From IMG/VR virus record IMGVR_UViG_3300042507_005574: a stretch of DNA of 64,000 nt; one strand, written 5' to 3'. Below the pieces are notes generated by a model. That model ran no database searches and had not been told where the DNA came from. It saw nothing but the letters and a program-made list of their open reading frames with translations. This DNA is from a virus. Below, one piece after another: positions 5,309 through 48,019 of this stretch (position 1 is its first letter; each line of letters starts with the position of its first letter). Made by a program: the position numbers and the translations under genes.

Positions 5309-7242
5309 TGTCAGATACAAAAATCAATGATTTAGATTTTGACAGCATCAAGTCTAGTCTAAGAGACTACTTGAGAGGACAAGAGCAGTTCAAAGATTAT
5401 GACTTCGAAGGGTCTACTTTAAACATTCTTTTAGACCTTCTAGCGTATAATACGCATTATCAGGGATTCTATGCAAATATGGTTGCAAATGAAGCGTTCC
5501 TAGACTCTGCAATAGTGAGAAACTCTGTGGTGTCTTTAGCGAAACATTTGAACTATAGACCTAGATCAAAGAAAGCAGCCAGAGCAGTTGTAAATATTGA
5601 AATGATTCCAATTAACAGTGCTAGGGGTGGAGTTCCTGCATCTGCAACTGTGGCAGCCAACAAAGAGTATCTTCCTCCGGGAAAATCTTTCAGTGCTAGA
5701 GATGCGTTAGGTAAAACTGTAAACTTTGTTAACCTAGAGAATTACAGGTTCTCGGTTGTTGGTGGAAGATTTTTCATCAATAACGCTATTTTATATGAGG
5801 GTAATATACAGACATCTTCATTTGTAGTGAATGTAAAAGATGTTAATCAAAAGTTCATAATTGATGACGATGATATCGATATTGATACTCTATTTGTAAA
5901 AGTTCAAAGATCAGTTAGAGATACGACAGGCATAGAGGATGTTTGGTTTAGAGCGTTAGATGTTAATAAACTTGATGGAAATTCATTGGCATTTTTTGTA
6001 CAGGAGGCAGAGGGAGGCAAATGGGAAATATATTTTGGTGATGGGATAGTTGGTAAAAATGTTGAAAATGGAAACTTGATATCAATAATTTATTTGCGAA
6101 CTAATGGAACTCTCGGAAATGGAATAGGCAACACAGATACCGAGCAGAACAGAACATTTACAACAACAAATACAGATACATCACAGTACATAGTTTCAGT
6201 AGTCCGTGATGAAAATGGTAGACCATCTCCATCATTTGGTGGTTCTGAGCCAGAATCCATCAATTCAATCAAGTATTACGCTCCAAGAAACTATCAAGCA
6301 CAAGATCGTGCGGTCACATCCACGGACTATCTCGTTTTACTTGCCAAAGAATATTCACTTAGATCAGAATCATTTTTAGTTTGGGGTGGTGAGGAAAATG
6401 ATCCCCCGAATTACGGTAAGGTCTTTATTTCAGTCAAACCAAAGAATTCATCTAAGTTGTCTATAACTGAAAAACAAGCGATATCAAAAAGTATTTTGAG
6501 TCCTTTGAATGTTCTTACGGTTAAACCTGAGGTTGTAGATGCGGATGTAACATACATCAATCCCTCCGTAACAGTTTACTATGATCCGAGATTGACAACA
6601 TCTTCAGCAGACAGTTTATCACAGGGAATAAGAGATAAGATAATAACATTTGGTGATATTAATTTAGACCAGTTTGGAAAAAATTTCAGACAGTCAAAGT
6701 TTAGTTCTTACATTGATGGGCTTGATGCATCTTTTAATAGCAGTAGCATTTCTTTACTTCTTGAAAAAAGGTTTGAGGTAAAATTCGGGCAGGCTCTTCC
6801 CTATAAAATTAAGTATGACAACAAACTGTTTCATCCAATTGATGGGTATCCTCCAATTATTAGTTCATCTGGATTTTTTCATTTAGATTTAACCGCCACA
6901 TCATTAATTAAACCTACCGTAGTTGCATATTTTGATGACGATGGTTATGGAAATATTAGAATTTATAAGTTGATAGGTAGTGAAAGAGTATACTTAAAAA
7001 GAAAAGCCGGAACTGTCAATTATGAAACCGGTTTAATTGAGATTAAATCATTTACACCGTTAGGTATTCCTGATGGTACTGTTGAAATTAATATATTAGC
7101 CAAACCCGATAAGGGGGATATCTTTGTAAGAAGAAATCAAGTTCTAGTAATTAATACTGACAAGATAGATATTACAATGGTTCAGGAGAAATCGGTTATT
7201 GATAGAAAGGCAAGTGACACAGGATTCCCTTTCCTGACTTGA
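5308..7242 (+). CDS. gp6: Baseplate wedge gp6
   Basis: LDFDSIKSSL, FKDYDFEGS.LNILLDLLAYNTHY, EIYFGDG, QDRAVT..DY, WGGEENDPP.YGKVFIS. Confidence 0.95.
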   Translation: MSDTKINDLDFDSIKSSLRDYLRGQEQFKDYDFEGSTLNILLDLLAYNTHYQGFYANMVANEAFLDSAIVRNSVVSLAKHLNYRPRSKKAARAVVNIEMIPINSARGGVPASATVAANKEYLPPGKSFSARDALGKTVNFVNLENYRFSVVGGRFFINNAILYEGNIQTSSFVVNVKDVNQKFIIDDDDIDIDTLFVKVQRSVRDTTGIEDVWFRALDVNKLDGNSLAFFVQEAEGGKWEIYFGDGIVGKNVENGNLISIIYLRTNGTLGNGIGNTDTEQNRTFTTTNTDTSQYIVSVVRDENGRPSPSFGGSEPESINSIKYYAPRNYQAQDRAVTSTDYLVLLAKEYSLRSESFLVWGGEENDPPNYGKVFISVKPKNSSKLSITEKQAISKSILSPLNVLTVKPEVVDADVTYINPSVTVYYDPRLTTSSADSLSQGIRDKIITFGDINLDQFGKNFRQSKFSSYIDGLDASFNSSSISLLLEKRFEVKFGQALPYKIKYDNKLFHPIDGYPPIISSSGFFHLDLTATSLIKPTVVAYFDDDGYGNIRIYKLIGSERVYLKRKAGTVNYETGLIEIKSFTPLGIPDGTVEINILAKPDKGDIFVRRNQVLVINTDKIDITMVQEKSVIDRKASDTGFPFLT

Positions 7243-45995: not shown

Positions 45996-46024
45996 AGTAT
46001 AACGATTATAAATCCTTTTGTCAA
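45996..46024 (-). promoter_or_regulatory. Sigma70-type early promoter
   Basis: TTGACA-17-TATACT. Confidence 0.85.
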
Positions 46025-46071: not shown

Positions 46072-46494
46072 CTAGAGGCCGTCTGCGGGAACCCACCCGC
46101 TGCCCCCTATGGAATCCCCGTCCTCACACAGGGCATCCTGCGCCTCCGTTTGGGACTTCCTGTAACTGTCCATGGCAGTCCTCTTATCAAAGAACGGTCC
46201 CATAACTTTACCGCTACTGTGATTCCAAACCCAACCTAGGTGTCTTGCGCTGTAGTAGATAACATCTTGTCCCATGGAAGGATCCATGCACCTCATATGG
46301 GAGATTTCAACATGGTCTGAAATGATGTTATTGGCATCATATTCCATGGGAAAGTGCTTGAGTAATCTAATTGCATTCTTTCGTACCGCACTCGGAATTT
46401 TCTTAACATAGTCAGGGCGACTAGGGTCACAGAGAGAAAGCAGAAAGTTCCTTGTGTTCACCATGGAAATGTATTGTTCGTATGGAAGTGTCAT
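46072..46494 (-). CDS. Conserved-type phage hypothetical protein
   Basis: MTLPYE......TR.FL..L.DP....IP..VR..A..LLKHFP pattern seen in phage genomes. Confidence 0.7.
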   Translation of the reverse strand: MTLPYEQYISMVNTRNFLLSLCDPSRPDYVKKIPSAVRKNAIRLLKHFPMEYDANNIISDHVEISHMRCMDPSMGQDVIYYSARHLGWVWNHSSGKVMGPFFDKRTAMDSYRKSQTEAQDALCEDGDSIGGSGWVPADGL

Positions 46495-46500
46495 ATGACT

Positions 46501-46528
46501 ATTTTATCCTGCTTTTGATGGAAGTCAA
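46501..46528 (-). promoter_or_regulatory. Sigma70-type promoter
   Basis: TTGACT-16-TAAAAT, 6 nt before ATG 46494. Confidence 0.7.
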
Positions 46529-46534
46529 GAGTAT

Positions 46535-46574
46535 AAAAAGAACCCCCTGCACAATTCCGGCTGTGCAGGGGGTC
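46535..46574 (-). terminator. Rho-independent terminator closing the candidate ncRNA
   Basis: GACCCCCTGCACAG-CCGGAA-TTGTGCAGGGGGTT-CTTTTT on the minus strand. Confidence 0.88.
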
Positions 46575-46824
46575 TCGGGATTCTCGCACCACCCCTTTAT
46601 AATTACGGCTCTTTGCCCCGTAGTGCGAGTACGGAACTGACTGACGGCAGTTGCAACTGCCGATTTTACACCAGAGAGTGAAGTCTAGAATACACTCCCA
46701 AGCGTCAGATGCCATCTGACTGAATATCAGTCAACGCTTCGTGCTTAATGGCCTATTTTACTTCGCACGAACGAAGGTGACTAGCCTTGGCGAACCTTGG
46801 CAGGGGCGAACCCTTTTCGTCACA
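46535..46824 (-). ncRNA. Candidate structured non-coding RNA (~290 nt), family unknown
   Basis: Bounded by its own sigma70 promoter and terminator; dense stems with UUCG loops; no credible ORF. Confidence 0.7.
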
Positions 46825-46829
46825 CCCCT

Positions 46830-46857
46830 AGTATAGCGTCTTGCCCACCTTTGTCAA
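46830..46857 (-). promoter_or_regulatory. Sigma70-type promoter driving the candidate ncRNA
   Basis: TTGACA-16-TATACT. Confidence 0.8.
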
Positions 46858-46907
46858 TACCCTATGTCTAAATTTTTGGAGGTTTGGTTATCGGTCACTT
46901 GTCAAAT

Positions 46908-46941
46908 AAAGAAGGCTGTGAAGATTTCTCCTCACAGCCCT
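46908..46941 (-). terminator. Terminator after gmd; 27-bp core identical to the gp23 terminator
   Basis: Minus strand GGGCTGTGAGGAGAAATCTTCACAGCC-TTCTTT. Confidence 0.8.
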
Positions 46942-46993
46942 GGCCCACTTCTACACTCCTTGTCTGGAGCCTTGGACAAGGTAAAATTTTTGG

Positions 46994-48019
46994 TCACTCA
47001 ACAAGAGCAGGCGCAGATCCTTGCATCTGTTTAGTGAGTAATGCCGAATCATATTTATACATGATCTTCGCAAGAAGTTTCATATCCACCTTGGGCTTCC
47101 ATCCAAGAACTCGTTTTGCCTTCGATGGGTCACCAAGAAGGAAAGGAACTTCATTCGGTCGGAAGTACTTGGGGTCGATGACAACATACTTGTTCCAATC
47201 AAGTCCTGCCTCTTCGAAGACTGCATCCAAGAATTCACGAACGCTATGTGTCCTCTGAGTTGCGATCACATAATCATCTCCCTCTGGCTGTTGAAGCATG
47301 AGCCACATGGCCTCAACATAGTCCTCTGCATACCCCCAATCACGAAGAGCATCAATATTTCCAAGACGCAACTCAGACTGCAATCCCATCTTGATTCTTG
47401 CAGCAGCCATGGTGATTTTACGAGTTACGAATGTCTCACCACGACGAGGACTCTCATGATTGAAAAGAATGCCAGTCGATGCATGGAGACCATATGCATT
47501 TCGATAAACCCGTGTCATGTGATGAGCATGAAGTTTGGCTACGGCATATGGAGATACAGGCATCATGATGCTGTTCTCATTGTACCCATATCGCTCATCA
47601 TAATCCTTACTATCGCCAAACATCTCAGATGATGATGCTTGGTAGAAACGGGTATTTGGACTAAAGGTACGAATTGCCTCAAGAATCTTTAGTGTTCCCG
47701 ACGCAATACCGTCTGATGTATATTCAGGAATATCAAATGATACTGCCACATGTGACTGTGCAGCAAGATTGTAGAATTCATCAGGTTTATGTGTCATGAT
47801 GATATGAGCGATGGCAGATCCATCAGTCAGATCAAAGTGATACATCTTGAATTTTGAATGATGAAAAAGATGATCGATTCTCGTCGTACTGATTGATGAT
47901 GTACGACGCTTTAACCCGATCACTGTGTATCCCTTCGCCAACAACATATCAGCGAGATACGATCCATCCTGACCATTGACACCAGTAATTACTGCAACTC
48001 TGTCTTCGCAATTTTTCAT
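46994..48019 (-). CDS. gmd: GDP-mannose 4,6-dehydratase
   Basis: ITGVNGQDGSYLA, YNLAAQSHVAVSF, RFYQASSSEMFG, SPYAVAK, GILFNHESPRRGETFVTRKIT, LGNIDALRDWG. Confidence 0.97.
   Translation of the reverse strand: MKNCEDRVAVITGVNGQDGSYLADMLLAKGYTVIGLKRRTSSISTTRIDHLFHHSKFKMYHFDLTDGSAIAHIIMTHKPDEFYNLAAQSHVAVSFDIPEYTSDGIASGTLKILEAIRTFSPNTRFYQASSSEMFGDSKDYDERYGYNENSIMMPVSPYAVAKLHAHHMTRVYRNAYGLHASTGILFNHESPRRGETFVTRKITMAAARIKMGLQSELRLGNIDALRDWGYAEDYVEAMWLMLQQPEGDDYVIATQRTHSVREFLDAVFEEAGLDWNKYVVIDPKYFRPNEVPFLLGDPSKAKRVLGWKPKVDMKLLAKIMYKYDSALLTKQMQGSAPALVE

Follow-up and report, generated by a model that had tools for sequence, protein, structure and literature searches.

What kind of gene lies between gmd and the gene that follows it in an uncultured T4-like phage? 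The DNA analysed here, hereafter the window, is a 64,000-nt part of such a phage, with a major head protein 62% identical to that of Pelagibacter phage HTVC008M. On its minus strand about 288 nt of dense structure, holding no conserved ORF, lie between a promoter and the end of a terminator, and the initial annotation had read them as a stand-alone structured RNA gene of about 290 nt belonging to an unknown class.

The structured RNA is present. A 296-nt fold reached -116.8 kcal/mol compared with -92.9 ± 4.9 in dinucleotide shuffles (z = -4.87, with 0 of 200 as good), and the structure is conserved with compensatory changes in relatives. The unknown class stands for part of the RNA only. The Rfam search, for which the initial annotation had said that a match would remove novelty, did return one, to the Pistol self-cleaving ribozyme (RF02679) at 46710-46776 (48.0 bits compared with a gathering score of 34.5), while the parts on either side, a 5' three-way junction and a 3' domain, are without an Rfam family. 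We regard it as very probable that this is a genuine pistol-containing RNA gene, and judging from its sequence the pistol is likely to cleave.

The locus and its transcription signals

The features referred to below are the following, given in window coordinates.

46994-48019, minus strand: upstream ORF, Gmd (GDP-mannose 4,6-dehydratase; Pfam PF16363, E 1.9e-121)
46941..46912, minus strand: terminator of gmd, 13-bp stem, upstream of the RNA promoter
46857..46830, minus strand: promoter of the RNA, TTGACA-16-TATACT, 11/12 matches
46852..46857, minus strand: -35 hexamer TTGACA of this promoter
46830..46835, minus strand: -10 hexamer TATACT
46777..46823, minus strand: 5' three-way junction, 47 nt, with basal stem GUGAC/GUCAC, hairpin 1 (46814-46803) and hairpin 2 (46801-46784)
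46710..46776, minus strand: Pistol self-cleaving ribozyme, RF02679 (E 1.1e-5 for the whole window)
46776-46772 with 46765-46761, minus strand: P1, CUUCG/CGAAG
46771-46766 with 46743-46738, minus strand: pistol pseudoknot UUCGUG/CACGAA, six perfect pairs, from the P1 loop to the strand between P2 and P3
46760-46754, minus strand: A-rich linker
46753-46750 with 46713-46710, minus strand: P2
46737-46735, minus strand: G40-C41-G42
46734-46728 with 46722-46716, minus strand: P3, 5' strand TGACTGA with CAGTCAG
46714..46715, minus strand: predicted scissile junction between A46715 and U46714, a 2-nt link from P3 to P2, placed by the model alignment (register ±1 nt)
46637..46708, minus strand: first part of the 3' domain, closing stem CUGAC (46708-46704) with GUCAG (46641-46637)
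46703-46669 and 46662-46645, minus strand: hairpins A and B, inside the CUGAC/GUCAG stem
46575..46634, minus strand: second part of the 3' domain, with hairpin C (46634-46618)
46589-46583, minus strand: GUGCGAG, which can pair with the hairpin C loop CUCGCAC (pseudoknot)
46614-46603, minus strand: conserved single-stranded 12-nt motif AAAGAGCCGUAA
46535..46574, minus strand: intrinsic terminator of the RNA, 14-bp stem (8 G-C pairs) and CUUUUU tail, with stem and U tract at 46574..46541
46528..46501, minus strand: separate promoter of the downstream gene
46072-46494, minus strand: downstream 140-aa gene, ATG at 46494

The promoter and the 14-bp terminator bear out the stand-alone gene of the initial annotation, which had also placed a gmd terminator upstream of the RNA and a promoter of its own ahead of the downstream gene. 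Both were found, and all the hairpins it listed were located when checked letter by letter. We infer that transcription starts at G46823 (±2), which would be the first paired base of the junction. A match to the Moco riboswitch at 46879-46988 was set aside as chance; it scored 20.7 bits against a cut-off of 36 and overlaps the gmd terminator.

The product of the 140-aa gene is one of a conserved phage family (relatives at L334:2879-3250, L337:2809-3225 and L339:2943-3314) with the motifs LKHFP-EY-AN and EYSPRHGGW-FWDETW, and its gene usually comes next after the RNA, or after gmd where the RNA is absent. It had no match in Pfam or PHROG, and its AlphaFold model (pLDDT 60) was too poor for a fold search. 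Just past this gene a second promoter, TTGACA-17-TATACT with 11/12 matches, was seen at window positions 45996-46024 on the minus strand, and it fits an early-promoter pattern.

Relatives and covariation

Homologues were sought by pattern scans of viral and metagenome contigs, among gmd relatives and in contigs encoding close Gmd proteins. All of them lie directly downstream of a phage gmd, and the diversity of the pistol-bearing family is modest, amounting to three clades.

Clade 1: window, L002/L243, L242, L245
Clade 2: L003/L244, L247, L249
Clade 3: L334, L337, L339, truncated L342
Junction and terminator only, no ribozyme: L251, L252, L254, L330
Plain hairpin replacing the pistol, then a variant 3' domain: L253
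No RNA after gmd: L259, L266, L335, L343, L344

Since some relatives do without the ribozyme, and since L337 is a mosaic of a window-type junction and a clade-3 pistol, the pistol is by sequence comparison an optional and exchangeable module of a wider modular RNA family. It should be noted that the comparison of relatives gives no direction, gain or loss, for changes of the pistol.

The covariation set comprised the three-way junction and pistol from 10 sequences under an imposed structure with the pseudoknot (37 pairs). Standard pairs were found in 94.2% of cells compared with 81.4% in shuffles (0/500 as high), and changes on both sides at 21 of the 37 pairs compared with a shuffle mean of 11.7 (0/500), counts that are not to be taken as probabilities, as the 10 sequences are related and the structure was derived from these same sequences. 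The slid controls are fairer, and with the 3' partners moved by 1 to 3 columns pairing was at most 44%. Every helix of the junction and pistol holds at least one compensatory pair among the 10 sequences: 3/4 in the basal stem, 1/3 in hairpin 1, 4/7 in hairpin 2, 1/5 in P1, 3/6 in the pseudoknot, 3/4 in P2 and 6/7 in P3, and pairing in P1 and the pseudoknot reaches 100% of cells. Identity between the window and clade 2 likewise speaks for selection on the RNA, being 96% in the junction and 88% in the pistol compared with 83% in gmd DNA. The terminator at 46535..46574 is 88% identical to that of clade 2.

Some details of the surrounding genes were seen in the same contigs. In the ribozyme-less relatives L251:2040-2090, L253:3455-3500, L254:2015-2060 and L330:2140-2190 (minus strand) the final codons of gmd double as the RNA promoter, the -35 TTGACA falling on codons for E/S-L-T and the -10 on those for G-I-V or G-T-I; as the gmd stop UGA is in turn part of the basal stem, constraints on coding and on the promoter coincide. 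Some contigs of each clade have, inserted after the RNA terminator and ahead of the 140-aa gene, a convergent 508-aa ORF (L002:2347-3873, plus strand; homologous ends in L003, L249, L254 and L330) that is absent from the window. It had no Pfam match and carries its own terminator hairpin, C7-UUUC-G7.

The pistol ribozyme and its flanking domains

By its sequence, 46776-46710 is a member of the pistol class. The window aligns to RF02679 end to end (model positions 1-68), and the homologues score 43.8-46.6 bits (clade 2 43.8, clade 3 44.8-46.6). The P1 hairpin, 6-bp loop pseudoknot, A-rich linker, P2, P3 and 2-nt scissile junction given for Pistol in the literature (Weinberg 2015; Harris 2015, PMC4604425; env25 structure 5K7C as cited in PMC6154101) are all found here, as is the usual phage habitat. 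The CTTCG hairpin, whose loop had been proposed to pair with downstream CACGAA as a pseudoknot or switch, turned out to be P1 with its pseudoknot. Core letters common to the window RNA and the RF02679 alignment are the AAA linker, purine-32, G33-C41 with G40, and G42; this check covers part of the 10 conserved pistol nucleotides, namely the positions named in the literature, with catalytic roles taken from PMC6154101. At position 32 the window has A and clade 2 has G, and either purine is active in env25 (PMC6154101).

Within the ribozyme, the RNA departs from the published pistols at two points. Where the consensus junction is GU, clades 1 and 3 have AU and clade 2 has GA, the length being 2 nt in all members; Harris 2015 reports that junction identity varies, that GU is only modestly conserved and that the length is strictly conserved (PMC4604425). 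P2 is very short, 3 bp (three G-C pairs) and a G·A mismatch, and an alternative register of P2 would move the predicted cut by one nucleotide.

Two pairings of the initial annotation had to be corrected, one here and one in the 3' domain. It had taken TGACTGA and TCAGTCA to close a multiloop, but TGACTGA forms the 5' strand of P3, where its partner is the neighbouring CAGTCAG. What closes the multiloop is a stem of CUGAC (46708-46704) and GUCAG (46641-46637), which is kept in clade 2, where the P3 sequence differs. The hairpin GUCAGAU-GGC-AUCUGAC was not adopted; it is in competition with P2 and P3, weaker in L002 and absent from clade 2.

A crude survey of viral contigs that match a pistol core pattern (L003-L118) gave 69 distinct phage pistols with a matching pseudoknot. 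An ORF of at least 60 aa started within 120 nt downstream in 30 of the 69, and 29 had no ORF within 250 nt, some of these 29 being cut by locus ends; going by these counts, a non-coding context downstream of pistols is not rare. In L016 a T-arm-like sequence (GGTTCGATCCCTGG...) lies directly before the pistol around 6458-6482 (minus strand), and ARAGORN found no tRNA in that locus.

The GTGAC/GTCAC stem around two UUCG-capped hairpins, as the initial annotation described it, is the 5' three-way junction, and compensatory changes in the basal stem and in both hairpins uphold it. The junction strands are GAAAA, U and UA in the window, and these strands (GAAAA, U or CU, UA) together with the letters of the UUCG loops are nearly invariant among the relatives; the whole junction is 88-98% identical compared with 71-84% for gmd DNA. 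Such near-invariance of strands and loops suggests recognition by a protein or ligand, and thus that the junction may be a protein- or ligand-binding module and not a base-pairing seed. Its conservation is aptamer-like; no ligand and no switching helix was identified.

Neither the junction nor the 3' domain, together about 220 of the 288 nt, matched any Rfam family at E up to 10 on short stretches. Scans of about 186,000 prokaryote genomes (bacterial and archaeal) for the junction yielded first no match and then a single one, due to chance, and blastn gave no match in the phage GenBank collection; all occurrences found are next to gmd in these uncultured T4-like phages. Loose DNA patterns, GGTTCGCC...GGTTCGCC and AAAGAGCCGTAA, found beyond the family coding or chance matches only. 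A long-range pairing of GGGUUCGC with GCGAAYYC given by RNAalifold clashes with hairpin 1 and has wobble-level support, and was not adopted.

The 2x2 internal loop of hairpin 2 (46798-46797 in the window) was seen to vary. The window has AA/AA, and L002 has UU/AA, which pairs fully; L242, L245 and clade 2 have GA/AA, and a tandem GA/AG is present in L251 and L252.

The 3' domain diverges faster than gmd (61-63% identity between the window and clade 2, compared with 83% for gmd DNA), and its layout is kept: a closing stem round two hairpins directly after the 3' strand of P2, followed by further hairpins, an A-rich single strand and the terminator. Clades 1 and 2 share the closing stem CUGAC/GUCAG; clade 3 has CCGA/UCGG. 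Hairpins A and B of clade 2 differ in sequence and lie in the same places, and between L003 and L249 of that clade all 7 substitutions of hairpin A fall in the stem with pairing kept or improved. At the opposed positions 46699 and 46672 of hairpin A, U·U in the window is C·C in L002, L242 and L245, a coordinated swap between pyrimidine mismatches.

For the second part of this domain the initial annotation had CTCGCAC and GTGCGAG enclosing TACGG..CCGTA. The CTCGCAC/GTGCGAG pairing is retained, not as an enclosing stem; UACGG pairs with the upstream CCGUA in hairpin C, which covaries to CUGCAU/AUGCAG in clade 2 with three compensatory pairs, and this makes CUCGCAC/GUGCGAG a pseudoknot. In the pairing of the hairpin C loop with GUGCGAR, clade 2 has U-A where clade 1 has C-G. 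The single-stranded motif AAAGAGCCGUAA is kept in clades 1 and 2; a search for its pairing targets in the window gave 5 matches compared with 4.6 expected by chance, and no convincing partner. Hairpin C, its pseudoknot and the A-rich linker look pistol-like, and a second or permuted pistol in the 3' domain was considered and rejected, as Rfam gave nothing there at E values up to 10 and the GCG core lacks conservation.

Transcript, proposed processing and meaning

All lineages inspected have a sigma-70-type -35/-10 pair ahead of the RNA, apart from the truncated L342, where none is evident. The hexamers are kept and the spacer varies. From the end of the -10 to GUGAC the distance is exactly 6 nt in clades 1 and 2 and in L251, L252, L253, L254, L330 and L337; in L334 and L339 the promoter is about 27-33 nt upstream of the junction. 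A near-universal promoter at this fixed distance, even within gmd codons, favours an independent transcript that would start at the junction. On balance we lean towards an independently transcribed, modular, non-coding phage RNA gene that is self-processed by its pistol.

We propose that a host sigma-70-type RNA polymerase would start at about G46823, at the base of the three-way junction, which would fold first in the nascent RNA, followed by the pistol. Once the 3' strand of P2, GGC (46713-46711), has emerged, the ribozyme would cut its own backbone between A46715 and U46714 (±1 nt). The 5' product of about 109 nt would then carry the junction and ribozyme core and end in a 2',3'-cyclic phosphate. 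The 3' product of about 179 nt would begin with a 5'-OH and hold the two-hairpin multiloop, the pseudoknotted hairpin C, the single-stranded motif and the terminator. As P2 has only three G-C pairs, the products could separate. In this way the ribozyme would give the RNA a processing site of its own, for which no host RNase is required, and the cut would uncouple two RNA modules that in related phages stand alone or are fused without a ribozyme. We infer that the separated products could be the functional forms, with our confidence evenly balanced. Against self-processing stand the AU junction in place of the consensus GU, the 3-bp P2 with its G·A mismatch, and the relatives that lack the ribozyme, from which it follows that the core function of the family needs no cleavage.

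As the gmd stop overlaps or nearly abuts the junction stem in most relatives, the element may also be carried on gmd read-through transcripts, especially in clade 2 with its lack of a strong gmd terminator. This raises the alternative that the RNA serves as a 3'-end module of gmd mRNA, the pistol trimming off the 3' domain and terminator so that a compact junction-ribozyme end with a 2',3'-cyclic phosphate tunes the stability of the mRNA. The constant position directly after gmd would fit this, as would the gmd stop codon inside or touching the basal stem in L251-L254, L330, L334 and L337, the lack of a strong terminator between gmd and the RNA in clade 2, and the 3' UTR roles proposed for bacterial ribozymes (PMC6765202). 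In the window, however, the 13-bp gmd terminator lies upstream of the RNA promoter, and a near-consensus promoter is found in nearly all lineages examined, even within gmd codons, and we think this alternative unlikely. It is compatible with an RNA that has its own transcript; the two are not mutually exclusive.

We find it quite unlikely that the RNA is a cis-regulatory leader of the 140-aa gene, in which the junction as a sensor (aptamer or protein site) would control termination or cleavage and with it read-through. In L251 and L252 the junction and a hairpin do lie in the 5' leader of the next gene, in the order promoter, junction, hairpin, Shine-Dalgarno and ATG with no intervening promoter, and such an order speaks for a function in cis in these two. 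The aptamer-like conservation would agree with a sensor, as would the fact that in clades 1 and 3 P1 follows the junction without a gap; clade 2, on the other hand, has a 4-nt spacer there. Further, the window has a strong terminator and a separate promoter ahead of the 140-aa gene, no alternative pairing between junction and terminator was found, and in five contigs (L002, L003, L249, L254 and L330) a convergent gene follows the RNA terminator, so that for the RNA in general a leader role does not hold. It is more speculative still, and in our judgement very improbable, that the junction senses a protein or small molecule, perhaps tied to the GDP-sugar pathway of gmd, and by stacking on P1 forms a natural allosteric self-cleaving ribozyme; a 2021 review knew of no natural aptazyme outside glmS-type cases (PMC8495972).

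A 74-codon ORF (46715-46491) has its ATG (46715-46713) at the predicted scissile junction and a stop overlapping the ATG of the following gene, so that the ribozyme cut could be read as making a leaderless mRNA, but we reject this as extremely improbable because the ORF lacks conservation (in L002 it has lost 1 nt and meets an in-frame TGA after 15 codons, and in clades 2 and 3 there is no start codon at this position), has no match in Pfam, reads through the strong terminator, and by the model would be cut within its AUG. Substitutions among the relatives preserve base pairs and not the reading frame. The reading-frame check proposed with the initial annotation thus came out on the side of an RNA, and the sequences favour a non-coding gene.

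Self-cleaving ribozymes of the hammerhead, twister or pistol classes punctuate phage operons, lying between small genes. Like these, the RNA studied here would have a self-cleaving ribozyme in a phage transcript as a presumed processing site; it differs in having a single ribozyme with no ORF on either side within the transcript, both predicted products being structured non-coding RNAs. Small RNAs derived from 3' UTRs with a promoter inside the upstream ORF, such as DapZ and MicL in enterobacteria, resemble the ribozyme-less relatives, in which the last gmd codons contain the promoter, and gene and RNA have the terminator region in common, whereas the conserved part here is a compact three-way junction and not a single-stranded seed. 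Theta (HDV-like) ribozymes lie beside phage tRNAs and have been proposed to define the end of the tRNA (PMC10879173). They too are small ribozymes adjoining a structured non-coding RNA in phage, but they are of another class, and the partner here is not a tRNA (none by ARAGORN).

What we describe is a new setting for a known ribozyme and not a new RNA class. In contrast to the known pistols, a single ribozyme here lies within a promoter-to-terminator non-coding RNA, between two conserved flanking domains, and close relatives are free of it. New as well is the three-way junction, a covariation-supported motif specific to a group of uncultured T4-like phages.

The roles of small self-cleaving ribozymes in bacteria and phages are largely unknown (PMC6765202). 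The relatives form a natural series in one gene neighbourhood, from no RNA, through junction and terminator, and junction with plain hairpin and 3' domain, to junction with pistol and 3' domain. This series allows the contribution of the ribozyme to be isolated by swapping natural variants, and it could help to clarify what the ribozyme does.
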